Assembly: GCA_041636435.1 (NCBI GenBank)
Contig: JBFKTF010000001.1
Location: 1 to 37,138, forward strand
DNA: 37,138 nt
Reading direction: 5' to 3'
DNA from: Thermoplasmatota archaeon
GTDB lineage: Archaea > Thermoplasmatota > E2 > JACPAO01 > JAHFTW01
Shown: piece after piece, positions 4,315 to 29,944 of the stretch
Position numbering within the stretch: the stretch's first letter is position 1
How the letters are laid out: each line of letters opens with the position of its first letter
The notes under the pieces: model-generated
Told to the model about the DNA's origin: nothing
Seen by the model: the letters and a program-made list of their open reading frames with translations, nothing else
Database searches by the model: none
Position numbers and translations under genes: made by a program

Positions 4315-4319
4315 GTGGG

Positions 4320-4324: not shown

Positions 4325-4356
4325 CAGCAGCACCAAAGTCGCGCTGCCCCTCAGCT

Positions 4357-4376: not shown

Positions 4377-4458
4377 CGAACGGCCAACCGTTCGATCGTT
4401 TGGGCGGCGTCCGGCTTCGCCGGAGCCACCCCCATCCGCACCCCCTTTTCCTCCAGTT

Positions 4459-5019: not shown

Positions 5020-5029
5020 GGAAATTACC

Positions 5030-8000: not shown

Positions 8001-8431
8001 GCCGCATGTACCAGGCCGACATCTTCGTGGGCTGCATCTACTACCAGAAGCTGCACCACATGGTGAGCGGCAAGATCCACGCCCGCAGCCGCGGTCCCGT
8101 GCAGATCCTCACCCGCCAGCCGACCGAAGGTCGTGCCCGCGACGGTGGTCTCCGCTTCGGTGAGATGGAGCGCGACGCCCTCATCGGCCACGGCGTGGCC
8201 ATGGTCATCAAGGACCGTCTCCTGGACGAGTCCGACCGCACCGTCCAATACGTGGATGCCAAGAGCGGCTTCATCGGCATGCTCGACCGGCGCGGCTTCT
8301 ACCGCAGCCTGAGCAGCGGTGACGACGCCGACATCCACCCCGTCGAGATGAGTTACGCCTACAAGCTCCTCATGGAGGAACTGCAGGCCCTCATGCTCGC
8401 ACCCCGCATGCGCTTGGAGGCGATCGCTTGA
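5030..8431 (+). CDS. rpoB: DNA-directed RNA polymerase subunit B (Rpo2), unsplit
   Basis: 1133 aa from ATG 5030 (GAGGA 7 nt upstream). Motifs [23 protein letters not shown] and [28 protein letters not shown]. The track ORF start at 4928 overlaps rpoH and is rejected. Confidence 0.97.
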
Positions 8432-13601: not shown

Positions 13602-14531
13602 CTACGCGTCGGGGTGGTATTCCCCGTCGGCTTGGAGCGTCCAGCCTTCGGGCGGAGCGTGATTGAAGAAGCCGCTGGCATAGAGCGAGTACTTCTGCTG
13701 CAACACGACGCCGGGGCCCACGGCCGTGCCGGGAATGCACCCCTGGTAGCAGCCGGGGAACACGGTGGCGCGGAAGCCGCCGGGGAATCCGGTTTCATTG
13801 AGGCCGGCACCCCCGCCACCGGTGCCGTCGCCGTTGTCGCACACCGCCTCGCGGGTCACGGTGCACACCAGGGGGCTGGGCCCCCAGACGTTGCCCACCC
13901 GTTGGCTCTCGCCGCCATCGGGCGCCGCGACGTATGCGATGATGCCCAGGTCGCGGCCGGTTTCCTGGGTCTGGGTCCACACGATTTCGGCTTGGAGGAC
14001 TTCGGGCATGACGTCGGTGCCGAAGTCGATGACCTCGTTGCGATCGGGGTCGCCAAGGGACGAGCACATGTTGGGGAAGACAATCCACATGACGAACGCG
14101 CAGCCGATGTACCCGTCGAATGCGGAGAACACGCTGAACGGTTCGCTGCCTGGGATGCGTTGGACCATGACGCGGAGCACGTCGGGTTTGGCGACGCCCG
14201 CCTCGACTTGGGTGCTGGTCTGGACCTTGGCGTAGCCTGGCTTCGTGACCTCCACGAAGTAGCTGCCCGGCTCCAGATCCAAGAACAGGAAGGTGCCGTC
14301 CGCGCCCGTCACCACGGCTTGATCATGGCCGACCAGGGTGGCGGTTGCGCCTTCGATGGGCGTGATGGCCTCGTCGATGATGACACCGCGAATGACGCCC
14401 TTGTCGTCCTGCACGTCATCCGGCTCCACCGTGGGTCCGCAGTGCTCCATGCAGTCGGCAATCGGCTCCGGTGCCCCGGCGCATCCAGCAAGACTGGCGA
14501 CGAGGAGCATGGCGATGACGGGCGTGCGCAT
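13602..14531 (-). CDS. Paralogous lipoprotein P1: lipobox, CarboxypepD_reg-like beta-sandwich, unknown Cys-containing C-terminal domain
   Basis: MRTPVIAMLLVASLAGC; GVIRGVIIDEAITPIEGATATL...GADGTFLFLDLEPGSYFVEVTKPGYAKVQTSTQVEAG; C-terminal QAEIVWTQTQ...GCIPGTAVGPGVVLQQ...FFNHAPPEGWTLQADGEY. Confidence 0.8.
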   Translation of the reverse strand: MRTPVIAMLLVASLAGCAGAPEPIADCMEHCGPTVEPDDVQDDKGVIRGVIIDEAITPIEGATATLVGHDQAVVTGADGTFLFLDLEPGSYFVEVTKPGYAKVQTSTQVEAGVAKPDVLRVMVQRIPGSEPFSVFSAFDGYIGCAFVMWIVFPNMCSSLGDPDRNEVIDFGTDVMPEVLQAEIVWTQTQETGRDLGIIAYVAAPDGGESQRVGNVWGPSPLVCTVTREAVCDNGDGTGGGGAGLNETGFPGGFRATVFPGCYQGCIPGTAVGPGVVLQQKYSLYASGFFNHAPPEGWTLQADGEYHPDA

Positions 14532-14577
14532 GCCCAGTCACCGGTCTTGGCGTCACTTGAGCCTTGTGGGCCTTGCC

Positions 14578-15477
14578 TCAGGAGGGCACAGGGTATTCGC
14601 CGTCCTTCTCGAAGGTCCAGCTTTCGTCGGGGTCGATGTTCCAGAACATGGTGACGTAGCCCACGAATGGTTGGTCCAACGTCGCGCCGGTCGCGAAGGC
14701 CGGGCCATCGGCGCTGACATCCACGCCGACCCACCATTGATCCAGGCTGTCTTTGCCGAAGTTGGCTTTGGCTTGGTCCATGAAACCAGCGGGCGTGCGG
14801 ATGACGGCGGGGCTCTGGTAGGTGCCTTCGCCCCAGCGTTCGCCGGCGGCGATGGTGCCGGGGCAACTCTCGTAGTTCTCCGGCGGGCAGAGGCTTTGGA
14901 TCAGGTACAGGTTTTCGCTGGCCGGCTGGGTGTTCTTCCAAATGATCTCCACTTGGATCCAGTCGGGCTCCCCGTTGACGATGTACTCCAGGTGGTAGTC
15001 GTCCTCCTTGCCCAGTTCTTCGCCACAGTAGCCGTAGGTGATGGGGACGCCCCAACCACAAGCCACGAAGCCCTCGTCCTTGAACGTAATCGCCGCGGGC
15101 TCCGTGCCCGGGATGGGCAGCATCTGGATGCGCACGGCGGGCGGGTTGGCGATGTCGGCTTCGACGATGGTCGACTGTTGGATGCTGCCCCAGCCGGGCT
15201 TGCTGGCCAACAGGAAGTAAGCGCCCGGGTCCAAGTCAACGAACGTGAACGTGCCATCGGGCCCGGTGACGGCTTCCTCGCCGCTCTCTTGGACCTCGAC
15301 GGTGACGCCCTCGATGGGTTGCACGGTGCCATCGATGACCACGCCACGGATGGCGCCCTTGCCGGCCGCCACGCGGTCAATCTGTGGCACGTCGTCCTCT
15401 TCCTCGGTGGCCGGGGCATCCCCGGCGCAGCCTGCCAGGACGACGGAGAGGACGATGGCGGCAGCTAGGATTCGCAT
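14578..15477 (-). CDS. Paralogous lipoprotein P2 (same family)
   Basis: From ATG 15477: MRILAAAIVLSVVLAGC; GAIRGVVIDGTVQPIEGVTVEV...GPDGTFTFVDLDPGAYFL; QVEIIWKNTQPASENLYLI; FWNIDPDESWTFEKDGEY. The 14 codons upstream in the track ORF are unsupported. Confidence 0.8.
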   Translation of the reverse strand: MRILAAAIVLSVVLAGCAGDAPATEEEDDVPQIDRVAAGKGAIRGVVIDGTVQPIEGVTVEVQESGEEAVTGPDGTFTFVDLDPGAYFLLASKPGWGSIQQSTIVEADIANPPAVRIQMLPIPGTEPAAITFKDEGFVACGWGVPITYGYCGEELGKEDDYHLEYIVNGEPDWIQVEIIWKNTQPASENLYLIQSLCPPENYESCPGTIAAGERWGEGTYQSPAVIRTPAGFMDQAKANFGKDSLDQWWVGVDVSADGPAFATGATLDQPFVGYVTMFWNIDPDESWTFEKDGEYPVPS

Positions 15478-15483
15478 AGGTTC

Positions 15484-16293
15484 ATGTTCTCGTTGCGCCA
15501 AGAAAACCGCTCCGGCCACGTCCTGAAAGCCTCATGGGGGCAATGGCCGCCCATCCCCTGGCTTGGCAAACCCCTAAGCCACGGCATCGGTGGGCCGCCT
15601 GTGTCCCGCTCCGTCCAGGAGATGTTCGGCCGCATCGCGCCCAAGTACGACCGCGCCAACACGGTGCTCAGCATGGGCCAGGACCGCTCCTGGCGCCGCC
15701 TGGCCGTCCGCATGGCCGACGTGCAACGCGGCGACCACGTCTTGGACGTCGCCTGCGGCACGGGCCCATTGAGTCGGGCGTTGGCCAAGGCCGTGCGCCC
15801 GGACGGCTCCGTCATTGGCGTGGACTTCACCCAAGGGATGCTGGACGTCGCCACCAAGCGCGGCGGCCGCCCCGAGGATGCGCCCATCATGTACCAATGG
15901 GCGGACGCCCAGGAGTTGCCCTTCGAGGACAATCGCTTCGATGCGGCCACCATCGCGTTCGACATCCGCAACGTGGATGACCCCGGCAAGGGCGTGGCCG
16001 AAATGCACCGCGTCGTCAAGCCTGGCGGCCGCGTCGTGGTCTTGGAGTTCGGCCAGCCCAAGGGGCCCGTGGGCGTCGGTTACCGCACGTACGCCCGCCA
16101 CGTCATGCCCCGCATCGGCGGCATGCTCACCGGCGACCGCAAGGCGTACGAGTACCTGCCCCGCACGGCGGCTGCCTTCCCGGCGGGCAAGGACTTCGTG
16201 GACCTGATGGAACGCTCGGCCGCATGGGGTGGCGTCCGGGCGCGCCGCCGCATGGGCGGCTTGGTTTGGTGCTACGCTGGCACCGTCGCCTAG
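15484..16293 (+). CDS. ubiE: Demethylmenaquinone methyltransferase (UbiE/MenG family)
   Basis: FGRIAPKYDRANTVLSMGQDRSWRR, SAM motif VLDVACGTG, and RVVVLEFGQP...YLPRTAAAFP. The start is uncertain: in-frame GTG 15601 (GGTGG upstream, giving 230 aa) or ATG 15622 are as plausible as ATG 15484. Confidence 0.85.
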   Translation: MFSLRQENRSGHVLKASWGQWPPIPWLGKPLSHGIGGPPVSRSVQEMFGRIAPKYDRANTVLSMGQDRSWRRLAVRMADVQRGDHVLDVACGTGPLSRALAKAVRPDGSVIGVDFTQGMLDVATKRGGRPEDAPIMYQWADAQELPFEDNRFDAATIAFDIRNVDDPGKGVAEMHRVVKPGGRVVVLEFGQPKGPVGVGYRTYARHVMPRIGGMLTGDRKAYEYLPRTAAAFPAGKDFVDLMERSAAWGGVRARRRMGGLVWCYAGTVA

Positions 16294-17126
16294 GGGACGT
16301 ACTCGCCGTCGGCGATGAAGCTCCACTCGGGGTCCGGTTCGGGGATGTTGTAGAAGAACGTCCCATAGACCTGGAATGGTTGGTCCAGCGCCACGCCCGT
16401 GCCATTGGCCGGGCCGCCGGGGCTCGCCCAGACGCCCAGCTGCATGCTGGTGCGGTTGTCGCCCGTCGTGCGGGCAATGTGGGGGCTGGAGAAGATGCCC
16501 TCACTGAAGCGGCCATCGAAGCCCCAGTCGCAGGGGTCGCCGCAGATCTTGGAGATGAGGTAGAGTTCGTTGCCGGCGGGCTGCGTGGACTTCCATTGCA
16601 CTTCCACTTGGACGTGGTCCGGGTTGCCGCCGTAGGGGATCGTGACCTGGCTCTTGTCTTGGTCGTCGAGGCCGGGGCATTGGTGGATGGTCAGGGGCGT
16701 GCCGGCACCGCATTGGACGAAGCCTTCGGCGGTGAACGTCATGGCGCTTGGGAGGCTCTCGGGGTAGAACTCGAGCATGACGCGCACGATGTCGGGCTTG
16801 GCCACGTCGGCGACCACGAGCACGCTTTGCTGGACGCGGCTCCAGCCGGTCTTCTCGATGGTGATGAAGTGGTTGCCGGGCTCGACGTCGACGAACTGGA
16901 ACGCGCCATCGTCGCTGGAAAGAATCGATTCGCCGCCTTGCAGCGTCACGGTGGCCTCGGGGACCGGCACAATGCTGGTGTCGACGACGACGCCGCGGAT
17001 GACGCCCAAGCCGCTGCCGACGTTGGCTGGCTCGTCGAAGAGGTCTTCTTCGGGGTCAACGGGGGCGTTCTCGGCGCAGCCGGCAAAGCCGATGGCGAGC
17101 AGGAGCAGGGCGGCGAGGAGGCGCAT
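16290..17126 (-). CDS. Paralogous lipoprotein P3 (same family)
   Basis: From ATG 17126: MRLLAALLLLAIGFAGC; GVIRGVVVDTSIVPVPEATVTL...DDGAFQFVDVEPGNHFI; QVEVQWKSTQPAGNELYLI; FYNIPEPDPEWSFIADGEY. Confidence 0.8.
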   Translation of the reverse strand: MRLLAALLLLAIGFAGCAENAPVDPEEDLFDEPANVGSGLGVIRGVVVDTSIVPVPEATVTLQGGESILSSDDGAFQFVDVEPGNHFITIEKTGWSRVQQSVLVVADVAKPDIVRVMLEFYPESLPSAMTFTAEGFVQCGAGTPLTIHQCPGLDDQDKSQVTIPYGGNPDHVQVEVQWKSTQPAGNELYLISKICGDPCDWGFDGRFSEGIFSSPHIARTTGDNRTSMQLGVWASPGGPANGTGVALDQPFQVYGTFFYNIPEPDPEWSFIADGEYVP

Positions 17127-17222
17127 CGGTCCAGTACGGCGCTGCCGGGGCATGAAGCATTGGGTGGTCGGGGCCATGGCACTGCGACAAACGCATCCAG
17201 GATAAGGATTCCGTGGAATCAG

Positions 17223-18473
17223 TCACGGTTTCCGCAATGCATCGGTGAGGTCGCGTCGCAGGATCGCCCGGCGGGGCTTGCCTGAGGCCGTCCGCGGCAC
17301 GTCGTGGACCGCATGGAACGCCTTGGGGCGCTCGTGGGGCGCCAGGCGTGCCTTGCACCACGCCGCCAGGTCGGCGGGCACCACCTCGGCCACGACCGCC
17401 GCCACGACGCGCTGGCCCCATTCCGCGTCCGCCACGCCAATGACCATCGCGTCCGCCACGTCCGGGTGGGCGCACAACACGGCCTCCACCGCATCCGGGG
17501 ACACGTTCTCGCCCCCGCTCACGATGCGGTCGTCGGCTCGCCCCAAGACGAACAGGTGCCCGTCCTGCAAGCGCCCCAGGTCGCCCGTGTGCAAGGGCCC
17601 CGGCGTCGTGACCGTGGTGCCGTCCACCACAATCTCTCCGATGCCGGCGTCGTCCGCCATGTGAATGGATACCTCCACGCCCCGCAACGGACGGCCTGCG
17701 GTGCCGGGCATTGCGTCCACTTCCTCGGGCAACGCCGTCGTCACCTGGCTGCACGCCTCCGTCAAGCCATAGGTGGCATGGATTGGCCAACCCGCGGCCC
17801 GGGCACGCTGGGTCAACTCCGCGTTCAAAGACGCCCCGCCGACCAAGGCACAATCGAGCTTGCCCGGCGCCACGTCCGCATCGAGCAGGCGCTTGAGCAT
17901 GGTGGGAACCAACGACGCATGGGTGGCGATCTCCAATGCCTTGGCGACCTTGGGCACCTCGAAGCGCTCATGCAAATCGATGCGGCCACCCCCGTGCATG
18001 CACCGGTCGATGAGCATCATGCCCCCCACGTGCCACGGCGGCAACACGTCCAACCAGACGCTCTCGCCGTCGCACGCAAGCCGCTCCATGGCCGCACCCC
18101 GGTGCGCTTGCACATGGTGCCGTAGCATCGTGACCCAACTGGCCTGCGTCGTGCCGCTGGTCAGCACGTGCGCAAACGCATCCGGTCGCGCGTCCCCCAC
18201 ATCGCCGGGCAAGGTGTCTTGGGGATCGCCGCGCACATCGCACACGATGAGGGGGCGTGGCCCCCGCACCGACTCCGCCAGGCTGCGTCGCTCCGGGTCG
18301 CACACCAGACCATCCACGCCGACGGTCGCCATCGCCTCCTGCAATCGCTGCGCCGGCAGGTCGATGGGCAGTGGCACCAACACGAAGCGTTGGGAATTGA
18401 CCGCCGCGTGCATGGACAATTGCGTGGGCGTGTTGTGGGCCAGCAAGCCGATGCGGTGGCCCGGGCGCAACAT
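17223..18473 (-). CDS. menE: O-succinylbenzoate-CoA ligase-like adenylate-forming enzyme (short, divergent)
   Basis: 416 aa from ATG 18473, which overlaps the menC stop (TGATG). ANL motifs YGLTEA, TGDLGRLQDGHLFVLGRADDRIVSGGENV and PRTASGKPRR. The upstream 160 codons of the track ORF overlap menC and are Arg/Gly-rich shadow sequence. Confidence 0.75.
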   Translation of the reverse strand: MLRPGHRIGLLAHNTPTQLSMHAAVNSQRFVLVPLPIDLPAQRLQEAMATVGVDGLVCDPERRSLAESVRGPRPLIVCDVRGDPQDTLPGDVGDARPDAFAHVLTSGTTQASWVTMLRHHVQAHRGAAMERLACDGESVWLDVLPPWHVGGMMLIDRCMHGGGRIDLHERFEVPKVAKALEIATHASLVPTMLKRLLDADVAPGKLDCALVGGASLNAELTQRARAAGWPIHATYGLTEACSQVTTALPEEVDAMPGTAGRPLRGVEVSIHMADDAGIGEIVVDGTTVTTPGPLHTGDLGRLQDGHLFVLGRADDRIVSGGENVSPDAVEAVLCAHPDVADAMVIGVADAEWGQRVVAAVVAEVVPADLAAWCKARLAPHERPKAFHAVHDVPRTASGKPRRAILRRDLTDALRKP

Positions 18474-19465
18474 CAGAGATCCTCCGGTGCCGTGCCAAGG
18501 CCGAAGCGACGGGGGACCTTCATGCGGCCAGCCACAATGGCCGGTGGCGGTGCGACGTCCTTGGCCAGGTAGCTCGACGTGGCCAAGCCCGCAGGCTCCG
18601 TCGTGCCCGCCGCCACGTGCAGCGCATGGTGGACGCCGATGCTGGTCTCCAAGCTGTTGGTCACCACGACGCGCTTGCCTTGGCGCATGGCGGCTTGGAT
18701 GCATTCCACGGCGCGGTCCGGGCCGCCGACCCGCTGCGTCTTGACGATGACCACGTGGCCGATGCCATCGGCCAGCAAGCGGTTGATGGTCTCGGCATCC
18801 GTGGCCGATTCGTCGATGGCGACGTCGAAGGGCCCGCGCGCCGTCAGATGGCGCAGCGTGTCCTCGTGCTCCGGCGCCACGGGCTGCTCGATGTAATCGA
18901 TCCCGAATCCGGAAAAGTCCTGCATCTTCTGGATGGCATCGTCCGGGCTCCACGCCGCGTTGGCATCCAAGCGCAGCTTGGCGTGCGGGGCGCCTTCGCG
19001 CACGGCGCGGGCCCGGGCCAAGTCGTTGCGGTGGTCGGTGCCAATCTTGAGCTTGATGGCCTCGTAGCCGACCAAGGCGCTGGCGGCGGCAATCTGGCGC
19101 ACCGTGTCGGGCTCGGGCGCGGTGATGAGCGTGTTGACGGGGACGTCGGCGTGCGGCTCGTCATGCAGCAATTGGGCGATGGGGCGGCGTCGCTGCTGCG
19201 CCTGGACGTCCAACTGGGCTTGGGTGATGCCGCAACGGACGCGGGGGTGCGCCGCGTCGAGCGCGCTGCCGGTGGCCTCGTTGGCGCGGTCCACCCAGGT
19301 TTGCAATGGCGTGGTGTCGTCCGGCGGCGGCGCAATTTCGCCCCAGCCGACCACCTCGGAGTCCTCCAACCGCACCAACACCACGCGGCGCCGATGCTGC
19401 ACGCCGCGGGCCCACCGATACGGGGCCGAGAGGGGCAGGTCCATGGCGTGGAAGCTCCACTCCAC
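18473..19465 (-). CDS. menC: o-Succinylbenzoate synthase (enolase superfamily)
   Basis: IKLKIGTD, LRLDANAAWSPDDA, YIEQPV and VAIDES are MR/MLE-type metal-ligand and catalytic-Lys motifs; men cluster context. Start is GTG 19465 or ATG 19444. Confidence 0.85.
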   Translation of the reverse strand: MEWSFHAMDLPLSAPYRWARGVQHRRRVVLVRLEDSEVVGWGEIAPPPDDTTPLQTWVDRANEATGSALDAAHPRVRCGITQAQLDVQAQQRRRPIAQLLHDEPHADVPVNTLITAPEPDTVRQIAAASALVGYEAIKLKIGTDHRNDLARARAVREGAPHAKLRLDANAAWSPDDAIQKMQDFSGFGIDYIEQPVAPEHEDTLRHLTARGPFDVAIDESATDAETINRLLADGIGHVVIVKTQRVGGPDRAVECIQAAMRQGKRVVVTNSLETSIGVHHALHVAAGTTEPAGLATSSYLAKDVAPPPAIVAGRMKVPRRFGLGTAPEDL

Positions 19466-19501
19466 GACGCGGCGATGGGCTCGGCGCCTAAGGCTTGCTC
19501 G

Positions 19502-20374
19502 TCACAGCCACAAGCCAATGGCGGCCAAGAGGCTGTACACCAACAGCACCCGCGCCGTGCCCCCCAGGGCCGGATTGTACGCGCGGCGATCGGCGTGGCG
19601 AGCCCACACGATGCGCGCCGGGGGAATGGCGACCAATCCGGCCGCCACGGGCAGCAACCACCACAAATCTTGGGCCAAGTGGCCGATTCCGAACGGGGCC
19701 AAGATGGCGGCGCCGACGAGGATGGCCCACAGCCAGCGCGTGGGGGATTCGCCCATGCGGACGGCCAAGGTGCGTTTGCCGGCGCTGCGGTCCGTCGGGA
19801 TGTCGCGCAGGTTGTTGACGACCAAGATGGCCGCCGCCAACAAGCCCAGCGGCACGCCCCACAGCAACGCCATGGGTTCCCAAGTCAAGGACTGCACGTA
19901 CACGGTGCCCGCCACGGCGATGGGTCCAAAGAACGCGAACACGAACACTTCTCCGAGCCCGATGTACGCGATGCTCTTGCGAGTGGCCGTGTAGAAGATA
20001 CCGCTCAGGATGCCCGCGCCGCCGATGGCGAGGATGGGCCAACCACCAATCCAGATGAGGTAGCAACCCACCAAGCCCGCCAACGCAAAGGTGCCAAACG
20101 ATGCGTTGCGCACCGCCAATGGATCCAGCAGGCCCGCCGCACTGGCACGGGTCGGGCCCGCCCGGGCCTCGGTGTCGGCGCCCTGGATGTGGTCGTAGTA
20201 GTCGTTGGCCAAATTGGTCCCAATTTGCAACAGCAACGCACCGGCCAAGGCCGCCAACGCGGGCCACAAGGAGAACGCGCCCATGTCGACCGCGAAGGCC
20301 ATGCCCACAATGACGGGGCTGGCCGCAGCGGGCAGGGTGCGGATGCGGAGGGTGCCGATCCAGGGACTGGCCAC
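19502..20374 (-). CDS. menA: 1,4-dihydroxy-2-naphthoate polyprenyltransferase (UbiA family)
   Basis: 290 aa, polytopic, with NDYYDHIQGADT and VVNNLRDIPTDRSAGKRTLAV Asp-rich motifs. GTG start. Confidence 0.9.
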   Translation of the reverse strand: MASPWIGTLRIRTLPAAASPVIVGMAFAVDMGAFSLWPALAALAGALLLQIGTNLANDYYDHIQGADTEARAGPTRASAAGLLDPLAVRNASFGTFALAGLVGCYLIWIGGWPILAIGGAGILSGIFYTATRKSIAYIGLGEVFVFAFFGPIAVAGTVYVQSLTWEPMALLWGVPLGLLAAAILVVNNLRDIPTDRSAGKRTLAVRMGESPTRWLWAILVGAAILAPFGIGHLAQDLWWLLPVAAGLVAIPPARIVWARHADRRAYNPALGGTARVLLVYSLLAAIGLWL

Positions 20375-20404
20375 GGCGCAGCGAGTCCGGCGTCGTAGGA
20401 AAAC

Positions 20405-20794
20405 CTACGCGGTGATGGCGGCCACGGCGCGCTCCAATCGAGCCGCTGCCTCCAAGCCGACCTCGGCCACCTTGTCGTTGCCGATGAGGCCCAGCGCCGC
20501 TTTGGGTTGCATCGCCGCCACGACAATGTCACCGTCGTGTTCGTAGACGCACACGTTGCACGGCAACAGCACGCCGATGTCCATGACCTCATGCACGGCG
20601 TCCCACGCCAACGGCGGATTGCATGCGCCTAGGATGAGGTACCGGCCCATGTCGCGGTCCAGCTTCTCCTTCATCTTGGCCTGCATGTCGATCTCTGTCA
20701 ACACCCCAAAGCCCTCCTTCATCAACTCGTCCCGCGCCTTCTGCACGGTCGCATCGAAGTCCAGCGGACTGGTGGCCTTGATGGCAATCTCCAT
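20405..20794 (-). CDS. DUF302 family protein
   Basis: 129 aa. FGVLTEIDMQAKMKEKL...YLILGACNPPLAWDA...IGVLLPCNVCVYE matches the DUF302 pattern as I remember it. Confidence 0.75.
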   Translation of the reverse strand: MEIAIKATSPLDFDATVQKARDELMKEGFGVLTEIDMQAKMKEKLDRDMGRYLILGACNPPLAWDAVHEVMDIGVLLPCNVCVYEHDGDIVVAAMQPKAALGLIGNDKVAEVGLEAAARLERAVAAITA

Positions 20795-20836
20795 GCCCTG
20801 GCCAATGGCGACGGGACTTGAAGGGTCGCGTCCGGG

Positions 20837-20989
20837 CTACCCGGGGCGCATGGCGAGGGCCATCCAAGCGGCTCCGCCGGCCAAGAGGGCGCCCGCCACG
20901 ACGGCAGGCCACACGCCATAGAATCCGCTCACCACGACGATGAGCATGCCCAACACGGCGACGGCCCAGAGAGGCCGGAGGTTGCCCAT
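20837..20989 (-). CDS. Small hydrophobic membrane peptide (50 aa, two predicted TM segments)
   Basis: MGNLRPLWAVAVLGMLIVVVSGFYGVWPAVVAGALLAGGAAWMALAMRPG. Its ATG overlaps the stop of the upstream 60-aa gene (TGATG). The rest of the 140-aa track ORF is Arg/Pro-rich shadow sequence. Confidence 0.45.
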   Translation of the reverse strand: MGNLRPLWAVAVLGMLIVVVSGFYGVWPAVVAGALLAGGAAWMALAMRPG

Positions 20990-21171
20990 CAGAGGGGATC
21001 GCAGCCGGCGCACATGCAGTCGTCGTGGTCCGCGTGGACCTCGGCGATGATGCCGCGCAAATCGTCGGCGTTGGGGGGTGTGCAGTACTTCATCTCGAAC
21101 TGCTGGATTTTCTCGTCCACGATGTCCATGTGGTTGGCGGCGCGGGGGAACTCTTCGAGGATGTCGTCCAT
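20989..21171 (-). CDS. Small acidic Cys/His-rich protein (60 aa), function unknown
   Basis: MDDILEEFPRAANHMDIVDEKIQQFEMKYCTPPNADDLRGIIAEVHADHDDCMCAGCDPL. AGGAG sits 5 nt upstream of the ATG, and codon usage is coding-like. Confidence 0.55.
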   Translation of the reverse strand: MDDILEEFPRAANHMDIVDEKIQQFEMKYCTPPNADDLRGIIAEVHADHDDCMCAGCDPL

Positions 21172-21185
21172 GGAGACTCCTACGG

Positions 21186-21200
21186 GGACCTCGGCTTGTC
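21186..21200. repeat. Direct repeat copy A (GGGACCTCGGCTTGTC-like) upstream of the 60-aa gene
   Basis: The 13-nt core ACCTCGGCTTGTC is identical to 21271-21283, with 16 of 17 identical when the flank is included. Confidence 0.6.
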
Positions 21201-21262
21201 AGCGCTCGGGGCTGCGCCCCTGAGGGCCCGCGCGCGGCATGCCGCTTCGCGGCAGCCACGCA

Positions 21263-22123: not shown

Positions 22124-22145
22124 GGGGCCGGCACAGGGGCGTCGC

Positions 22146-23762
22146 TCAAAGATGCTGCGCGAGCGCCTTGCCGGCGGCCTCGTGGGCTTGGCGATGCAGG
22201 GCCTGTCGCTTGTGGGCCTCGCCGCCGGGGGTCTCCACAATGGTGACGCCCGGATCGAGCTTGGCCAATCCAGTGGGCGTGGCGAAATGCACGGGCACCT
22301 CGGCGGCGTAGCATGCGGTCTCGATGTCGAGACCTGGCGGCGTGACGAACAGTTCCTGGAACCGCGTCGTGGCCGCGGCGACGGGCAGGTGTTCGAAGAT
22401 GCGGCCACCTCCGTTGTCGATGACGACAAGGGACAGCGCATCGTGCCATAGTGCCAGGCTGGATTGATCGTGGGCAAACGCCAAATCGCCGATGATGGCC
22501 GTGGTGGGGCCGCTGCGAGCGATGCCGGCAGCGGTGGCGATGGTGCCGTCGATGCCACTGGCGCCGCGGTTGGCCAAGACGTCGATCGTGGCACCGCTGC
22601 GCCCGTAGCGCTCCAAGTCCCGCACCGGCATGGAGTTGCCCACGAAGATGCGCTCGGGTGCGCCCGCCAACAGCGAGGCGACCCAGGCGGCTTCGTCGTG
22701 GTCCTCGGGCACCACGTCCGCCACGGCGGCGTCCATGGCGCGCCAGAGGGCGGCCCATGCGTCGGCGCCCGGCATCGGGGCGGCTTCCTTGGTGGCCTTG
22801 TCCATCCAACGCGCCGGATCGGCGTCGGTCATGTCGCACGGGCCAATGTCGTCCCAGCCGCGACCCGACCAATCGAAGCGCAGCCGATTCTCCGCTCGCG
22901 CCAGGTACCTGGCCAGGTGGCGGCTCGTGGGCGTGGCACCGAATTGGACGACCCAATCCGCTTTGGGCAACGCGTCCAGGTCGGCGAAGCGATCGGCGCC
23001 CGACACCACGTCGAGGCCCGCAAACCGCAGACCCGACAAGCAGTCCGCGACGATGGGTGCCTGCAACGCCGCCGCGAGGCGCTTGATGGCCGGCGCCAGG
23101 TGACGCCCTGTCTTGGGGCCACACACGATGAGGCCCCGCGGCCCGAGGTGGCCGAGGCTGACTTGAGGCAAGTCGCCGCTGGGCTGGGGCTGCGCCGGGG
23201 GCTTGGTCTGGCGGCGTGCCTGCTTGGCCAGTGCCCGCAGCGCCTCGTGTCCGCCGCCGTCCGGCTCCAAGGGCTTGTCGAATGGTTGGTTGAGGTGGAT
23301 GGGCCCCAGCGGGTAGCTGCCCAACGCGTCCGCGATGCTTGGCGGGATGGCGTGGGCATCCGGCATCGGCAGGTCGACGGAGCTCCGCGCCACGCGGTCA
23401 AACAAATCGACTTGGTCGATGGTCTGGTTGCTGCCGGTGTCGCGCAGCCGAGGCGGCCGGTCGGCAGTGAGCGCCACCAAGGGCACGTTGGCTTGGTGGG
23501 CCTCCGTCATGGCGGGCCACAGGTTGCTGACGGCGGTGCCACTCGTGGTGATGACGGCGGCCGGTCGTCCCGTGCCCAACGCAACGCCCAATGCGTGGAA
23601 CGCGGCGCCGCGCTCGTCGATGTGGATCGTGGTCTCGATGTCCGGATGGGCGTCCACGGCCAGCGCCAGGGGCGTGCTGCGGCTGCCCGGGCAGAGCGTG
23701 GCGTGGCGCACGCCAAGGGATGCCAGGTGCTCGAGGATGGCGATGCTGGCCTGCGTGTTCAT
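22146..23762 (-). CDS. menD: SEPHCHC synthase (2-succinyl-5-enolpyruvyl-6-hydroxy-3-cyclohexene-1-carboxylate synthase), ThDP enzyme
   Basis: From ATG 23762: [33 protein letters not shown]...[31 protein letters not shown]...GASGIDG. The ATG overlaps the menF stop (ATGA). Confidence 0.9.
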
Positions 23763-24874
23763 GCCAACTCCCGCAAGGTGGCCAACTTGTCCTCGGTCTC
23801 CTGCCATTCGGCTTGGGCCTCGGAGCCGGCCACGATGCCCGCTCCCGCGAACAAGGTCCGGCGATCACTATGTTGGTGGGCGCAGCGCAGCGCCACGTTC
23901 AGCACCCCCTCGCCCTGGGCGTCAAACCATCCCACGGCACCGGCGTACCAGCCCCGGGGAACGTCCTCCAGTTCTCGGATGATGGCGAGGCTGCGGCGAC
24001 GGGGCGTGCCGCACACCGCCGGCGTGGGGTGCAACCGCGCGGCGATGTCCAGGATGTGTGTCCCGGGCGGCGCGGTGCCCTCCAGGGGTGTCTCCAAGTG
24101 CGTGACGTGGCGCAGATCGCGACGCCTGCGCGGGGATTGTTGAATGGAATGGATGCCCGACTCGACGAGCCGTTCCCGGACGAAGGCCGCCACCAGTTCG
24201 TGCTCCAGGATGTCCTTGTCCGCGGAACTGAGGTGCTCGGCCGCGCCGTTGCGTGCGGTGCCGGCCAAGGCGTGGGTCTCCACGCGGCCATCCTGCAAGC
24301 GCACCAGGGTCTCGGGGGTGCAGCCAAAGAACGTGGCCCCGCGTTGGAACAAGAACGACGTGCCCTCTTCCAGGCCTCGCAGGGCGTGGAATGCGGCCAT
24401 GGGGTCCCCGGCATCGATGCAGCGGCTGCGCGCCAAGACCACCTTCGCCACGTCGCCGCCGCGGATGGCGTCCGTGGCGGCCTGCACCATGCGGGCCCAA
24501 TCGTCTTGGTCCACGTGGCTGCTGGCCAAGGCACCCCCCTCGGGTACCTCCACGTCCGGGGCCGCGATGGTGGTCTCAAACAACGCCCCATCCGCCCAGA
24601 CCCATTGCCTTCGCGGCAACGTGAAGCAGGCATCGGGGAAGCCCGACCACGCATCGCCGGGCGCGAATCCGATGCCGCCGGTCCAGCGTGGGCGCCCCGC
24701 AGCGGGGCCTTCGTACGCCAGGGGTTGGTCCACGGCCGCGCGCAACGCCTCCATGCGCCGCTCCCCTTGGGCATGGGCCACGGCCACCACGCCCGCCTGG
24801 ACAATGGTCTCCGAGCCCGACCAGACCGCAACGGGGCCTTGGCATTGGTCCAAGATTTCCTCCACGCTGCGCAT
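23759..24874 (-). CDS. menF: Isochorismate synthase
   Basis: LAGTARNG..., CGTPRRRSLAIIRELEDVPRGWYAGAVGWFD and AGAGIVAGSEAQAEWQETEDK are chorismate-binding motifs. Start is ATG 24874 (371 aa); GTG 24904 is possible. ORF codons further upstream run antisense to the wHTH gene. Confidence 0.85.
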   Translation of the reverse strand: MRSVEEILDQCQGPVAVWSGSETIVQAGVVAVAHAQGERRMEALRAAVDQPLAYEGPAAGRPRWTGGIGFAPGDAWSGFPDACFTLPRRQWVWADGALFETTIAAPDVEVPEGGALASSHVDQDDWARMVQAATDAIRGGDVAKVVLARSRCIDAGDPMAAFHALRGLEEGTSFLFQRGATFFGCTPETLVRLQDGRVETHALAGTARNGAAEHLSSADKDILEHELVAAFVRERLVESGIHSIQQSPRRRRDLRHVTHLETPLEGTAPPGTHILDIAARLHPTPAVCGTPRRRSLAIIRELEDVPRGWYAGAVGWFDAQGEGVLNVALRCAHQHSDRRTLFAGAGIVAGSEAQAEWQETEDKLATLRELA

Positions 24875-25021
24875 GGGGACTTCCTGGCCACGGCCGATGA
24901 ACACAATCGGCCCACACCGGTCGCCGTCAAGGGCATTTCCACTGGGCCCTCCTGGGCGATGGGCCTCTGGGGGCCAGGGGTTGGACTCGAAGTTCAACCT
25001 TCGCAGGGGGGTGCCATATGC

Positions 25022-25273
25022 ATGGATGGCCCATGCACTGCCATGGCCTGCCACGACCTCGTCCAACGCATCGACGGCCCCGCCTCCATGAAGACGGTGG
25101 CCAGCGCACTCTGCCACGACCGCATGACCCTGAAGGACCTGCAACTCCGCTCCGGCCTGGCCCGGCGCACCGTCTACGGGGCGCTGCGGCGCCTGCGCGA
25201 CATGGGGCTCGTGCAAGAACTCCCCAATCTCCGGGACACGCGCCAATCGTGGTACGTCCTGCGGTCCACTTGA
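25022..25273 (+). CDS. Small winged-helix DNA-binding protein (MarR/TrmB-like wHTH)
   Basis: The tail of the frame-2 ORF reads ...MKTVASALCHDRMTLKDLQLRSGLARRTVYGALRRLRDMGLVQELPNLRDTRQSWYVL, a helix-turn-helix plus wing. The start is uncertain among four in-frame ATG codons starting at 25022. The TGA overlaps the next ATG. Confidence 0.6.
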   Translation: MDGPCTAMACHDLVQRIDGPASMKTVASALCHDRMTLKDLQLRSGLARRTVYGALRRLRDMGLVQELPNLRDTRQSWYVLRST

Positions 25274-26418
25274 TGCGCTTCCTGCCGCTGGCCGTCCTGA
25301 TGCTTGCCTTGGCCGGCCCGGCCGCCGCGGAGCACGTCAGCACCGGCGAAATCCGCTGGGCCTGCGGCTTCAACGGCAGCGGCCAACGAGGCCACCCGGA
25401 TGGCTGCGGCATCGACCCCATCGGCGGCGAAGGCGTCGACAGCGAAGGCACGCCCGAGTGGGGGCCGGCCTGGGTGGACGACGACGAGCCGGTGTTGGGC
25501 ATCGTCGTGGACGGGGATGCACGTGCGGTGCCCGTCGTCATGCTGGATGCCCACGAAATCGTCAACGACCGAATCGGTGGCCGCGACATCGCCATCACCT
25601 ACTGCCCTTTGTGTGGCAGTGGCGTCGCCTTCGACCGCACCGTGTTCATCGACGGGGCGACGCGGACGTTGACCTTCGCGGCCAGCGGCTTCCTTTACCA
25701 GAGCGACCTGGTCATGTGGGACCCCGAAACCAGCACCCTGTGGAATCAAATCACCGGTTCCGCCATCGCCAGCCTGGTGGATCGACGCGTCGAAGCCGTG
25801 CATCACGAGGCGACCTTGGCCACGGTGCCATTGGTGGTCACCTCGTGGGGCGAATGGCGCGAACAACACGGTGGCGCGACGATGTTGCAGAAGGTGCGGG
25901 CCGGCTATGGAAGCGCGTACGCCGGCTACGATGCCAGCAGCGGCCAATGCGGCCTGGGCACGTGCATCGGCGTCGACGAACGGCTCCACCCGAAGGAGCT
26001 GGTCATCGGGGTCACCGAGCCCAGCACGTGGGCATTTCCGCTCTTTGGTGTGCAGGCCGCGGGGGGCGTGGTGGTCCATGCAGGGCTCGTCGTGACCGCC
26101 ACGCCAGGGGGCGCCCACGCGGTCCACGACGCATCAGGATACGAGTTCACGCGCATGCAGGACGGCTGGGTCGATGCCAACGGCACGCGATGGAATCTGC
26201 AGGAGGGGCGATCCGAACACGGCGCCACCCTGCCCCCGGTGGACAGCGTGCGCCTCTACTGGTTTGCATGGGCCGAGCACCACCCCGACACGGATCTCTG
26301 GCAACCCACCAACGCCAGCAGCGAATTGGAGCGGGACAACGGCAAGCTGCTGGGGTTCACCATCCCCATCGTGGCGGGCGTGCTCTTGCTCATTGCCATC
26401 TTCTGGCGGCGTCGATGA
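25273..26418 (+). CDS. DUF3179 family secreted protein with a PGF-CTERM-like C-terminal anchor
   Basis: From ATG 25273: signal peptide MRFLPLAVLMLALAGPAAA, then ARAVPVVMLDAHEIVNDRIGGRDIAITYCPLCGSGVAFDR...SGFLYQSDLVMWDPETSTLWNQITG (DUF3179 pattern). The tail is LLGFTIPIVAGVLLLIAIFWRRR. Confidence 0.75.
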   Translation: MRFLPLAVLMLALAGPAAAEHVSTGEIRWACGFNGSGQRGHPDGCGIDPIGGEGVDSEGTPEWGPAWVDDDEPVLGIVVDGDARAVPVVMLDAHEIVNDRIGGRDIAITYCPLCGSGVAFDRTVFIDGATRTLTFAASGFLYQSDLVMWDPETSTLWNQITGSAIASLVDRRVEAVHHEATLATVPLVVTSWGEWREQHGGATMLQKVRAGYGSAYAGYDASSGQCGLGTCIGVDERLHPKELVIGVTEPSTWAFPLFGVQAAGGVVVHAGLVVTATPGGAHAVHDASGYEFTRMQDGWVDANGTRWNLQEGRSEHGATLPPVDSVRLYWFAWAEHHPDTDLWQPTNASSELERDNGKLLGFTIPIVAGVLLLIAIFWRRR

Positions 26419-26612
26419 CGATGGAACACCGGTGGGTGCGGTGGCCCATCGCGCTCGTCGCCGGCTTTGGGGCCATCGCGGTGCTGGCCCTCGTCATGCA
26501 GCAAATCATCCAGGGGGCGTTGGGCGTCCGCTGGGTGATCCACTGGTTCGAGACGGTGCCGTTCATCGCCCTGCTGTTTGCCTACCTCATCGACAGGCGG
26601 TTGCGGGCTTAG
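26415..26612 (+). CDS. Small membrane protein (65 aa, two TM segments)
   Basis: MTMEHRWVRWPIALVAGFGAIAVLALVMQQIIQGALGVRWVIHWFETVPFIALLFAYLIDRRLRA, with an ATGA overlap with the DUF3179 gene. Confidence 0.5.
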   Translation: MTMEHRWVRWPIALVAGFGAIAVLALVMQQIIQGALGVRWVIHWFETVPFIALLFAYLIDRRLRA

Positions 26613-27562
26613 AACTCGTATTCGCCTTCGTCGATGAATTCCCAGTCTTCCTCGGGGATGTGGTTGTAGAACAGGGTCACGTAGAACGCGACTTCCTGGT
26701 CGATGGCCACGCCGACACCCCAAACGGTGCCCGGAACGCACTGGACACCGCAGTTGCTGAACAAGCCGATGGCGAATTGCTGGTTCCAGCCATTGCCGTC
26801 GTTGATGGTCGTGAAGTTGTTGCCCCCGCCGCCAATGTCCTCACTGGCCACGTTGTTGTTGACGCGGCAGATGAGGGGGCTCTCGCCGCGGATGTTGCAG
26901 ATGCGGTCACTGCCGGTGCCGCTGGTGCATCCGGCGTTGTCGCGGTTGCATTGGATGGTGACCAGGCCGCTGCTGAGGGGCTGGTTGGCCTTCCAGAAGA
27001 CCTCGGATTGGAAGTGGCTGGGGGCGTCGGGGCGACCCGCGTCGAAGACGCCCATGCTGTTGTCGCGGTCGCGCATTCCGGCGGCTCCCGTGGGGTCGCA
27101 GGAACCAGCGTCCCAGACAAAGTTCAGCGTCTTGAAGCCGCAGGAAATGAATGCCTCGTAGTACAGGGTCTGGGCGCTGGGCAGCTCGCTGGGGTTCAGT
27201 TCCACTTGGATGCGCAGCATCTCCGGCTTGTCGACGCCCGCCTGGACCTGGGTGCTGGATTGGACCTTGCCGTAGCCGACCTTCTGGACGTCCAAGAAGT
27301 AGGCGCCGGGCTCCAAGTCCGTGAAGAGGAACAAGCCGTCCTCGTCGCTTTGGGTCTCCAGGCCCAAGTTCTTGATGGCGATGGTGGCGTCCGCCACCGG
27401 GCGAATCTCCGTGTCGATGATGACGCCGCGAATGACGCCCTTGTCGTCGGCGACCTCGACGTCCTGGAACTTCTCGGGTTCCGCTTGGGCATTGACCGGA
27501 GCAGGGTCGGCGCAGCCGGACAAAGCGACGGCCACCAACATGAAAGCGACAAGGACGCGCAT
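26609..27562 (-). CDS. Paralogous lipoprotein P4 (same family, closest to P1)
   Basis: From ATG 27562: MRVLVAFMLVAVALSGC; DDKGVIRGVIIDTEIRPVADATIAI...EDGLFLFTDLEPGAYFLDVQKVGYGKVQSSTQVQAG; QSEVFWKANQ; QCVPGTVWGVGVAIDQ; FYNHIPEEDWEFIDEGEY. Confidence 0.8.
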   Translation of the reverse strand: MRVLVAFMLVAVALSGCADPAPVNAQAEPEKFQDVEVADDKGVIRGVIIDTEIRPVADATIAIKNLGLETQSDEDGLFLFTDLEPGAYFLDVQKVGYGKVQSSTQVQAGVDKPEMLRIQVELNPSELPSAQTLYYEAFISCGFKTLNFVWDAGSCDPTGAAGMRDRDNSMGVFDAGRPDAPSHFQSEVFWKANQPLSSGLVTIQCNRDNAGCTSGTGSDRICNIRGESPLICRVNNNVASEDIGGGGNNFTTINDGNGWNQQFAIGLFSNCGVQCVPGTVWGVGVAIDQEVAFYVTLFYNHIPEEDWEFIDEGEYEF

Positions 27563-27583
27563 GCGAGGGCCTCGGATTCCCGC

Positions 27584-27588
27584 TATTT
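27584..27588 (-). promoter_or_regulatory. Candidate TATA-like element for P4 (GTCAAATAGCG on the minus strand)
   Basis: AAATA lies 22-26 nt upstream of ATG 27562, in the 53-nt gap after the DUF547 stop. Confidence 0.35.
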
Positions 27589-27615
27589 GACGGTTGTTGG
27601 CGTCCTGTGCAAGTC

Positions 27616-28275
27616 TCAGGCCTTGTTCAGGGTCCAATCGTAGCGAAGCCACTGGATGCGGGGGTGGTTGGCGCGGGCCCATAGCACGTCGCTCTTTCCG
27701 CCGTACTTGTGGAACACTTCCCTGGGCGATCCGATGCGGGCGAAGTCCTTGCGGAACCACTTGAGAATCGTGGGCAAGTACAGCACGTTGGCCGCCCGGT
27801 CCAGGCGGGCGTCGGCCATGAACGCCCGGCCCGCCAATTCGAGTTCTTCGTGCAGGTCCTCGCCGTGGTAGATGCCCTCGCGCAGCGGGGGGCACCCCGC
27901 GGTGGCACAAACCAAGGCAAAGTGGCCCCGCGGGTCGCGGCGCAGGAAGGGCTTGAGGCGCCGGTATTCCAGCGTCGCCAGGGTGCTCCACTTCCCCGCG
28001 ACCTTGAATGGGGTCAGGAAGAAGAAGACGAACCGCGTCCACGGGTTGCGCAAGGAACCGCGCACCTTGCCATCGCGATACAAGCGACGTTGCACGGCCC
28101 GGATGGTGCAGATGTTGTATGCGTTGAGCAGGAACGCGTACTGCGCGGTTTCGGGCATGCCGCGGAGGTTCGCCTTGGCGATGGCGTCCAGCGCCTCTTG
28201 GAGGTCGTCTCCCTTGATGGCATCGTAGTCGACGCCATCCGAAGAGGCGTGGACCAACACCGCGTCACCCGTCAA
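27616..28275 (-). CDS. DUF547 family protein (cytoplasmic, no signal peptide)
   Basis: AFLLNAYNICTIRAV...STLATLEYRRLKPFLRRDPRGHFALVCATAGCPPL...ELELAGRAFM fits the DUF547 pattern. There is no in-frame ATG downstream of the P5 stop, so TTG 28275 (or GTG 28260) is proposed. The track ORF start at 28587 lies inside P5. Confidence 0.7.
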   Translation of the reverse strand: MTGDAVLVHASSDGVDYDAIKGDDLQEALDAIAKANLRGMPETAQYAFLLNAYNICTIRAVQRRLYRDGKVRGSLRNPWTRFVFFFLTPFKVAGKWSTLATLEYRRLKPFLRRDPRGHFALVCATAGCPPLREGIYHGEDLHEELELAGRAFMADARLDRAANVLYLPTILKWFRKDFARIGSPREVFHKYGGKSDVLWARANHPRIQWLRYDWTLNKA

Positions 28276-28322
28276 TGCGTCGTCACCGGCGTGTAGTGGA
28301 AAACGTCGATGGTGCGAGTTGG

Positions 28323-29222
28323 TCAGACCATGCCATCGTTGGCGAAGACCCAACCTTCTGGTGGCACCATGTTGTAGAATGAGGCCGCGTACGTGTGGAT
28401 TCGCTGCTGCACCACGATTCCAACCCCGGCTTCCGGCGCGATCGGGTCGCCGCAGACGGTGCAGTCTGCCTTCACGAGCAGGCCGATGCCCACGCCGGAT
28501 CCGCGGCCATGGCCGACGGCACCGATGGTGCTGATTTGCCCGACCGTGCCGCTGGCGGCCACGTCCTCCAGCGTGGAGCGGCACCACAGGGGGCTGCTAC
28601 CCCAGTGCTGGCACATGGTCCAACCATTGAGGGGGTTGCAGTACGCGCCACCGGTGCAACTGGCCCACGTGGAGGTCAGGCTGTCGCCCAGGGCCTGGGT
28701 GTTGTCCCAGACCACTTCCACTTGCACTGCGTCGGGCACGCGGTCTTCGGCGGGCAAGAAGATGGCGTTGTCGGGCGCGCCGAATTGGCCCGTGCCCCCA
28801 TCGCAGGATTCGATGAATGTGGCCACGATGGCCTCGCACGCGATGAAGCCCACGTACTCCGTGATGATGCCATAGGGCAGCGTGCTGGCCAGTGGCTCCA
28901 AGGCGACGCGGACGTCGGCCACCTCGCCAGCGACGACCTGCACGCTGGTCTGCGTCGGGATGAAGTCCGTGGCGTTGAAGCCCAAGAAGTGCGCTCCCGG
29001 GGGGACGTCCTTGAACGCAAAACGACCATCGTCCCCGGTGGTCGCTTCGATGCCGCTCAACGCGACGCGGACGCCGGGCAACGGGTTGATGGCCCCATCC
29101 GTGACGAGGCCCCGGATGGCGCCGAGGGTGGGCACGTCCGCCACCGGCTCCGCCGCGTCCTCTTGTTGGGCGCAGCCTGCAAGGGAGGCCAACAGCAGGA
29201 GGGCCAGGACGGAACGACGCAT
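28323..29222 (-). CDS. Paralogous lipoprotein P5 (most divergent member)
   Basis: MRRSVLALLLLASLAGC; GAIRGLVTDGAINPLPGVRVAL...GDDGRFAFKDVPPGAHFL; QVEVVWDNTQ; EAGVGIVVQQ; FYNMVPPEGWVFANDG. Confidence 0.8.
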   Translation of the reverse strand: MRRSVLALLLLASLAGCAQQEDAAEPVADVPTLGAIRGLVTDGAINPLPGVRVALSGIEATTGDDGRFAFKDVPPGAHFLGFNATDFIPTQTSVQVVAGEVADVRVALEPLASTLPYGIITEYVGFIACEAIVATFIESCDGGTGQFGAPDNAIFLPAEDRVPDAVQVEVVWDNTQALGDSLTSTWASCTGGAYCNPLNGWTMCQHWGSSPLWCRSTLEDVAASGTVGQISTIGAVGHGRGSGVGIGLLVKADCTVCGDPIAPEAGVGIVVQQRIHTYAASFYNMVPPEGWVFANDGMV

Positions 29223-29913: not shown

Positions 29914-29937
29914 GGATGGTCCATGGTGGTCCCGCAC

Positions 29938-29942
29938 GTAAT
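29938..29942 (-). promoter_or_regulatory. Candidate TATA-like element for the CARF-wHTH gene (GCATTACG on the minus strand)
   Basis: ATTAC lies 25-29 nt upstream of GTG 29913, just downstream of the helicase stop codon. Confidence 0.25.
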
Positions 29943-29944
29943 GC

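Follow-up and report, generated by a model that had tools for sequence, protein, structure and literature searches.

Multi-copy lipobox proteins of Thermoplasmatota with a predicted jelly-roll-like C-terminal domain

Five lipobox paralogs and their domains

The window analyzed here is a 37,138-nucleotide stretch of DNA from a Thermoplasmatota archaeon (assembly GCA_041636435.1, contig JBFKTF010000001.1). It carries five genes for lipobox-containing proteins, all on the minus strand, which we call P1 (13602-14531, 309 aa), P2 (14578-15477, 299 aa), P3 (16290-17126, 278 aa), P4 (26609-27562, 317 aa) and P5 (28323-29222, 299 aa). A first-pass annotation had described these open reading frames (ORFs) as a paralogous family of 278-317 aa, and all five are present where it placed them. 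P1, P2 and P5 are identical to the database proteins P0002, P0003 and P0001, and the database entry for P3 (P0006) starts at an upstream ATG, 17177. The ORFs of P2, P3 and P4 open further upstream of the starts given here, which we favor because both the alignment and the signal peptides support them.

The five proteins clearly belong together. P2 to P5 share 34-37% full-length identity with P1, and an alignment of the five contains 45 invariant columns. When a hidden Markov model (HMM) built from the five sequences was run against a six-frame translation of the window, it recovered only P1 to P5, with E-values of 1e-118 to 1e-138, a match far beyond chance. The subgroups proposed earlier are also visible, with Gly-rich inserts in the C-terminal domains of P1 and P4 and 42% identity between those of P2 and P3.

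Each protein begins with MR, 10-12 hydrophobic residues and then [LF][AS]GC, which puts the lipobox at residues 14-17. From P1 to P5 the lipoboxes read LAGC, LAGC, FAGC, LSGC and LAGC, as first annotated, and an RR pair occurs in P5 alone. In P1, the signal peptide is encoded by 14484-14531 and the lipobox Cys17 by 14481-14483 (both minus strand). The cysteine is followed by an acidic, Pro-rich tether of 17-28 aa; that of P1 is 28 aa long and contains CMEHC. The mature proteins have masses of 28-33 kDa, an isoelectric point (pI) of about 4.1 and N-glycosylation sequons. Mature P1 (pI 4.1) contains 8 Cys.

A CarboxypepD_reg domain spans approximately residues 36-115 in all five proteins. The first annotation had called this region CarboxypepD_reg-like, and the matches to the Pfam family PF13620 (47.0, 48.1, 40.8, 46.0 and 46.6 bits for P1 to P5) all pass its gathering cut-off of 32.3. 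On the minus strand, they lie at 14190-14393 in P1 (residues 47-114, E 3.3e-12), 15166-15351 in P2 (E 1.6e-12), 16806-17000 in P3 (E 2.8e-10), 27230-27433 in P4 (E 7e-12) and 28896-29117 in P5 (E 4.6e-12). The domain is a bona fide member of PF13620, but it has no peptidase or TonB-receptor module attached. One repeat of the anammox S-layer glycoprotein Kustd1514 (NF052345) can likewise be aligned with it, at E-values down to 2.8e-11. These alignments score 19-42 bits against a cut-off of 1400, and a single domain is shared, so the proteins are not S-layer homologues.

The remainder of each protein is the C-terminal domain (C-domain), also encoded on the minus strand. It covers 13605-14156 in P1 (184 aa), 14581-15114 in P2 (178 aa, with 4 Cys and no Gly-rich insert), 16293-16766 in P3 (158 aa, the minimal form), 26612-27196 in P4 (195 aa, with 8 Cys and a GGGG insert) and 28326-28892 in P5 (189 aa, with 8 Cys). 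The sequence landmarks originally listed for it are present with small deviations: P1 reads YIGCA in place of the CG motif, and P5 terminates in DGMV.

This domain had been reported as unassignable, and that description holds. Pfam returned no C-domain family at E<=1 beyond noise for the five paralogs and 40 diverse C-domains. Matches of eight family members to NCBIfam were confined to the N-terminal domain or the signal peptide, and three profiles built from 5, 29 and 40 C-domains reached best E-values of only 0.6 to 2 against PDB sequences. Judged by sequence, the C-domain thus matches nothing among the characterized families in these three collections. None of the searches we ran placed the C-domain in a characterized family or the proteins in a known single-copy one.

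To look beyond sequence, we turned to predicted structures. AlphaFold2 modelled the P1 C-domain (184 aa, from a 29-sequence alignment) with a predicted local distance difference test score (pLDDT) of 91.4 and a predicted template modelling score (pTM) of 0.85, and the P3 C-domain (158 aa, 40 sequences) with a pLDDT of 91.2 and a pTM of 0.87. Both models are all-beta, with 8-9 strands of which the first and last are long. We searched PDB and BFVD with the P1 model, and PDB with the P3 model, using Foldseek; the matches listed were all jelly-roll sandwiches. Among them are capsid proteins of bromovirus, luteovirus, circovirus and satellite panicum mosaic virus, TNF-like domains, PirA, GOLD, carbohydrate-binding modules (CBMs) of families CBM4 and CBM15, the Kex2 P-domain, and phage fibre and cement proteins. 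The matches have probabilities of 0.97-1.0 and E-values of 2e-4 to 1e-2, with template modelling (TM) scores of 0.30-0.45, 5-14% identity and root-mean-square deviations of 6-16 Å. The C-domain is therefore confidently modelled as a jelly-roll-like beta-sandwich, a likeness of fold class rather than of family. What it has in common with single jelly rolls and related sandwiches (capsids, TNF/C1q-like domains, PirA, GOLD, CBM4/CBM15, the Kex2 P-domain) is an all-beta domain of about 160 aa with 8-9 strands, the terminal ones long; by sequence it is unrelated to them.

Several more specific assignments were considered and rejected. A viral or capsid origin found no backing: the family has no sequence relationship to viral jelly-roll capsids, two scans of IMG/VR contigs yielded no relatives, and the gene context is cellular housekeeping. 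Membership in a CBM family fails on the Pfam scans, which gave no such family, and the structural TMq to CBMs is 0.31-0.37. Glutamic peptidases of family G1 (Peptidase_A4) gave no match at E<=1 and are absent from the top 50 Foldseek matches listed. Finally, the loop CDNGDGTGGGGAGLNETGF of the P1 C-domain is nearly invariant among 14 P1-like sequences; calcium binding by DNGDGTGGGGDG was dismissed on inspection, as this loop fits neither the RTX pattern GGxGxD nor the EF-hand pattern Dx[DN]xDG.

Family size, tandem arrays and a neighboring family

A word-indexed protein search gave the impression of a tiny family, with 28 and 34 matches. An exhaustive HMMER search of 1.84 billion representatives, clustered at 50% identity, overturned it: 602 clusters match at E<=1e-3, of which 303 reach E<=1e-10, so the indexed search badly under-reports the family. 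Nearly all clusters are 280-340 aa long with the C-domain starting near residue 125, indicating the same architecture throughout. Where the source is named, it is always a Thermoplasmatota metagenome-assembled genome (MAG). A profile scan of GTDB species representatives with the P1-like alignment found two loci, both in Thermoplasmatota, and a metagenome scan found eight short contigs. The lineage-specific expansion proposed earlier stands as far as this is a multi-copy Thermoplasmatota family, but the family is not confined to this organism.

Conservation across the family agrees with the architecture seen in the window. At least 152 of 161 full-length members have a lipobox (LAGC in 108), and near-variants are present in most of the nine that lack one. 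Downstream of the lipobox Cys, 146 of 157 members contain an even number of cysteines, which, with their short spacing, fits structural disulfides. Across 179 C-domains from all paralog groups, numbered by position within the P1 C-domain, C19 and C31 are 99-100% conserved. Q154 (100%), E57 (98%) and Q55 (93%) are also conserved, as are P51, W60, Q64, S94-P95, G149, F163, P168 and W172. In this set there is one invariant acidic residue and no conserved His/Ser/Asp/Tyr set. Between the anchor residues, segments of fixed length alternate with variable ones of 6-25, 16-46, 18-42 and 29-106 aa, which amounts to a rigid scaffold with four variable loops.

A few family members depart from this plan. 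Between two full-length members in locus L012 (loci outside the window are given as L numbers), positions 11046-11561 encode a 171-aa protein with an ordinary, non-lipobox signal peptide and a C-domain only, so the C-domain can occur alone. P0029 (412 aa) and P0135 (360 aa) join an unrelated N-terminus to a truncated CarboxypepD_reg domain and a C-domain, and are probably chimeric or mis-assembled. In P0065 (2544 aa), 12 matches cover the Gly-rich loop region only and probably reflect low complexity.

Elsewhere, the family usually forms tandem arrays, each of 6 to 9 paralogs, and the scatter seen in the window is the exception. Each array lies on one strand together with genes of a second family, described below. 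L009 has one such partner gene and 6 lipoprotein genes, L027 (a 673-kb contig) one and 7, L026 (a 492-kb contig) three and at least 8, L024 four and 3, and L018 one and 2. The arrays of L009, L026 and L027 are flanked on one side by RtcB and archease; on the other lies NucS in L009 and L027, and the L026 array runs past the end of the locus. Short JGI contigs of 1.3-4 kb (L015-L019) each hold two or three adjacent copies. Best matches between arrays are partly collinear: L027.1/2/3 pair with L026.1/2/3, L027.5 with L026.6 and L009.4, and L027.6 with L009.6. Together with the invariance of the P1-like loop, this collinearity speaks for separate and stable roles of the paralogs and against their rapid diversification.

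Directly upstream of the arrays in L009 (7408-8760), L018 (2-1540), L026 (8485-12781) and L027 (10001-11392), and interleaved with lipoprotein genes in L024 (1196-7607), is the second unannotated family. Its proteins of 400-470 aa carry an ordinary Sec signal peptide and share a conserved stretch in the N-terminal part, MYFHINGFQDFPVNTQKP; at the other end they have a tail of 'SPG', a hydrophobic helix and RRR, which resembles a PGF-CTERM or sortase signal. No Pfam or NCBIfam model matches above its cut-off, and the tail is sub-threshold to sorting-signal models. An indexed search found 62 relatives, and those with an organism name are Thermoplasmatota or Thermoplasmata MAGs. This co-location, in at least five loci of different lineages, is the only functional association that we found.

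Searches of the literature on Thermoplasmatota lipoproteins and lipoboxes, on S-layers and archaeosortases, and on archaeal CarboxypepD_reg lipoproteins turned up no description of the family. We regard it as a new, previously undescribed domain family with an unusual conserved organization of array plus partner.

Other lipobox proteins are encoded in the vicinity of the arrays: an S15 X-Pro dipeptidyl peptidase (L024:3-962, minus strand), a PETase-like hydrolase (L009:4052-5764) and two further proteins (L009:1103-2122 and L025:6391-7479, the latter on the minus strand), one of which has a His-rich tail. These archaea appear to anchor many exoproteins via lipoboxes. Upstream of the lipoprotein genes in L012, two paralogous proteins of about 597 aa (5890-7686 and 7881-9671) belong to no Pfam family and have hydrophobic, signal-peptide-like N-termini and C-terminal repeats of the NGGG/GVNGG type.

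The window itself is arranged differently. Starting from the rpo/NusA genes, an archaeal rpoB-A'-A''-L30e-NusA(KH) operon, the order is P1, P2, ubiE (opposite strand), P3, menE-C-A, DUF302 and menB-D-F. There follow a small helix-turn-helix (HTH) gene with a DUF3179 gene, then P4, a DUF547 gene, P5, an HFX_2341-like gene and a large helicase gene. The interleaved, non-tandem layout noted by the first-pass annotation is thus true of the window but atypical of the family. It is also conserved. L010, L013 and L023, from related MAGs, repeat it with differing numbers of paralogs, L010 having an additional copy upstream of its P5 relative. The closest relatives of P4 (L010c, 68% identity) and P5 (L010b, 67%) occupy the same positions, between DUF3179 and DUF547 and beside DUF547, respectively; those of P2 are L013.1 and L023.2 (58%). 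A compact men-ubiE-NusA-rpo cluster in L028/L029 includes two P1-like genes a short way upstream of menF, with one gene of the opposite strand in between. Because related MAGs reproduce the scattered layout near rpo and men, it is inherited synteny, not recent dispersal. G+C content is 65-71% in all loci examined.

We looked for a one-to-one correspondence between P1 to P5 and members of a canonical array and found none in the L027 comparison, where each of the five aligns to every array member at 57-136 bits with no clear best match. P1 to P5 form a derived subfamily of their own, with no clear counterpart in the arrays. The count of five copies is right for the window and too low for the genome. 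Assemblies GCA_041623295.1 and GCA_041632075.1 contain a P1 identical to that of the window and also L024 (three members) and L025 (two), at least five more copies. If these MAGs represent the same organism and their bins are clean, each genome has at least 10 copies.

A proposed role at the cell envelope

The first-pass annotation favored a cell-surface family with a binding, adhesion or envelope function, and the lipobox, the Cys parity and the predicted fold class point in the same direction. In our preferred reading, to which we give somewhat better than even chances, these are lipid-anchored envelope or binding proteins that are not enzymes and that probably act with the neighboring family. 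The window's host belongs to the classical Euryarchaeota. Export would most likely proceed by Sec, since P5 is the sole paralog with an RR pair. This pathway is the one predicted for non-haloarchaea, and classical Euryarchaeota are predicted to be rich in lipoproteins, mostly Sec-dependent ones (PMC12462473). In Haloferax, lipobox proteins are lipidated with archaeol by AliA/AliB (PMC12462473). The family shares with the AliA/AliB substrates of Haloferax volcanii a signal peptide ending in [LVIF][AS][GAS]C and hence a predicted lipidated-Cys anchor, whereas its mature part is a new domain combination. By analogy with those lipoproteins, we infer that the lipobox Cys is lipidated through a thioether and the signal peptide cleaved.

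At the surface, the acidic tether and the rigid, transthyretin-like CarboxypepD_reg domain would hold the jelly-roll domain off the membrane. The jelly-roll domain would then serve as a non-enzymatic interaction module, presenting a fixed scaffold with an exposed, conserved Q-x-E strand (Q55/E57) and the four variable, paralog-specific loops. The family may form part of the cell envelope, as a surface coat, probably together with the C-terminally anchored partner proteins, and each of the old paralogs could contribute its own binding surface, directed to a partner protein or to external polymers. A role in binding or assembly is supported by the Foldseek matches, since those jelly rolls act as binding or assembly modules, and a non-enzymatic one by the lack of any match in Pfam, NCBIfam or PDB sequences and by the single invariant acidic residue.

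Some observations weigh against this proposal. Adjacency alone does not prove that lipoproteins and partner interact, and P1 to P5 are not beside the partner family at all but near rpo and men genes. An hhalign comparison of the C-domain with the partner family gave a probability of 0.65%, that is, no detectable homology. The structural matches are weak, as their TM-scores and E-values show, so function cannot be transferred from them. Moreover, Q55, E57, Q64 and Q154 are kept in all paralogs and could mark a catalytic or metal-binding site.

The last point leads to an enzymatic alternative, in which the C-domain would be a small hydrolase or lyase of beta-sandwich fold, with Glu57 acting together with Gln55 or Gln154. 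Conceptually, this would resemble the Gln/Glu dyad of glutamic (G1, eqolisin) peptidases, or the glycanases and lyases that have a jelly-roll fold. The high conservation of these three residues favors it, and Q55 and E57 appear to lie on the strand face opposite the hydrophobic L54, A56 and I58, judging from sequence and DSSP strand register. Sedimentary Thermoplasmatota are, besides, generally regarded as degraders of protein and other polymers. Yet the five paralogs and 40 C-domains gave no Pfam match at E<=1 to Peptidase_A4, a glycanase or a lyase, no such enzyme is among the listed top 50 Foldseek matches, and the lone invariant acidic residue comes with no conserved His/Ser/Asp/Tyr set. 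G1 peptidases also act at acid pH, whereas the samples behind these MAGs are sand, sediment and soil, and six to ten divergent paralogs of one enzyme per genome would be unusual. We consider an enzyme improbable. Another possibility, closer to our own, is that the paralogs are surface lectin- or CBM-like lipoproteins with varied carbohydrate or peptide specificities that capture nutrient polymers and feed exoenzymes and transporters, as functional analogues of the SusE/SusF-type surface glycan-binding lipoproteins of Bacteroides; this overlaps with an envelope role in part but denies both the structural function and the partnership with the neighboring family. It would account for the CBM4, CBM15, porphyran-binding and pectate-lyase CBMs among the Foldseek matches, for loops that vary on a fixed scaffold, for the lipobox exoenzymes near the arrays (the S15 peptidase of L024 and the PETase-like hydrolase of L009) and for the Reprolysin-like protease that adjoins the paralogs in L013. 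We nevertheless find it unlikely. No transporter or glycoside hydrolase is consistently adjacent in the loci examined, Pfam gives no CBM sequence match, CBMs reach no higher TM-scores than capsid proteins do, and polar residues kept in all paralogs argue for a shared ligand rather than varied ones.

The surroundings of P1 to P5 could point to a different kind of link, to menaquinone or redox chemistry. Here, the subfamily would work with the adjacent men genes, with DUF3179, whose sequence includes a CPLC motif, and with DUF547, for instance in quinone-dependent extracytoplasmic thiol-disulfide chemistry or electron transfer. L010, L013 and L023 do keep the paralogs in synteny with the men operon, DUF3179 and DUF547, two P1-like genes lie near menF in L028/L029, the proteins are Cys-rich, and DUF3179 carries the motif CPLCGSG. 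But common descent by itself predicts synteny among close relatives, and the arrays of other lineages have no men genes nearby, nor do L024 and L025 in the assemblies with an identical P1. The paralogs are often on the strand opposite to the unrelated rpo/NusA operon or interleaved with it, no cofactor-binding motif is seen, and the Cys pattern fits structural disulfides. We give this link very little credence, and leave the remaining probability to explanations beyond those considered here.

The proposal of lipid-anchored envelope or binding proteins has a more ambitious form, which we consider speculative and rather improbable: the arrays and the partner family might together constitute a new multi-component envelope, in which varied lipid-anchored jelly-roll subunits co-assemble as a hetero-oligomeric lattice. 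Tiling would be analogous to that of capsid-like jelly rolls, with P1 to P5 as a second, lineage-specific set of subunits. For S-layer proteins in particular, the support is indirect: the secreted, C-terminally anchored family beside the arrays, and the match of one domain to NF052345, far below that model's cut-off. If true, such a lattice would differ from the one- or two-protein S-layers of other archaea.

Among known systems, the SusE/SusF-type lipoproteins of Bacteroides offer a parallel. They are lipid-anchored, consist of beta-sandwiches only, place a spacer before distal binding modules and occur in paralogous sets. However, they belong to a different domain of life with different lipidation chemistry, no Pfam or NCBIfam similarity to them was seen, and the genes described here have no adjacent transporter or glycoside hydrolases and so no context like that of a polysaccharide utilization locus.

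Next to nothing is known of what surrounds the cells of uncultured Thermoplasmatota in sediment, soil and groundwater. The family described here comprises at least 600 clusters, has 6 to 10 or more copies in each genome, contains a new domain that is modelled with confidence and keeps a conserved partner, which makes it a concrete candidate for a major envelope component. Archaeal lipoproteins have become tractable by experiment only recently (AliA/AliB, 2025), and the family provides predicted Sec-type lipoprotein substrates, a clean set from beyond the haloarchaea. Neither Pfam nor NCBIfam contains its C-domain, which could be added to both. Should the paralogs prove to be binding proteins only, the result would be a useful annotation and no surprise.

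Other genes around the paralogs

The DUF3179 gene between menF and P4 (plus strand, 25273-26418; Pfam E 7e-59) encodes the CPLCGSG motif mentioned above. Its start is most likely 25273 (MRFLPLAVLMLALAG..., a signal peptide) and not the first ATG of the ORF at 25018. The small TrmB-like HTH ORF before it (plus strand, 25043/25088-25273) ends exactly at that start. This pair also adjoins menF in L010 and L013, and in L023 DUF3179 alone is called there.

Between P4 and P5 lies the DUF547 gene (minus strand, 27616-28587), annotated as an ORF of 323 aa. Its N-terminus is probably too long, as the L010 counterpart has 223 aa; the order P4-DUF547-P5 is kept in that locus. Beyond P5, an HFX_2341_N-like gene (29263-30195) precedes a helicase of 1205 aa (minus strand, 29945-33562), whose L010 counterpart has AAA_11, AAA_12, DUF559 and MTES_1575. 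The two genes bound the paralog region both in the window and in L010.

Between menB and DUF302, at about 20800-21260 on the minus strand, are two small ORFs: a Cys-rich one of 60 aa (MDDILEEF...CMCAGCDPL) and a hydrophobic peptide of 50 aa (MGNLRPLWAV...). At least one small gene is also called at this position in L001, L010, L013 and L023, so the two ORFs may be a conserved part of the men cluster.

Immediately upstream of the two P1-like genes of L028/L029, positions 1305-9956 hold an integrase gene and, after it, about ten genes without annotation; together they may be an integrated element. The protein used to look up this locus is indexed in 53 blocks of the collection.

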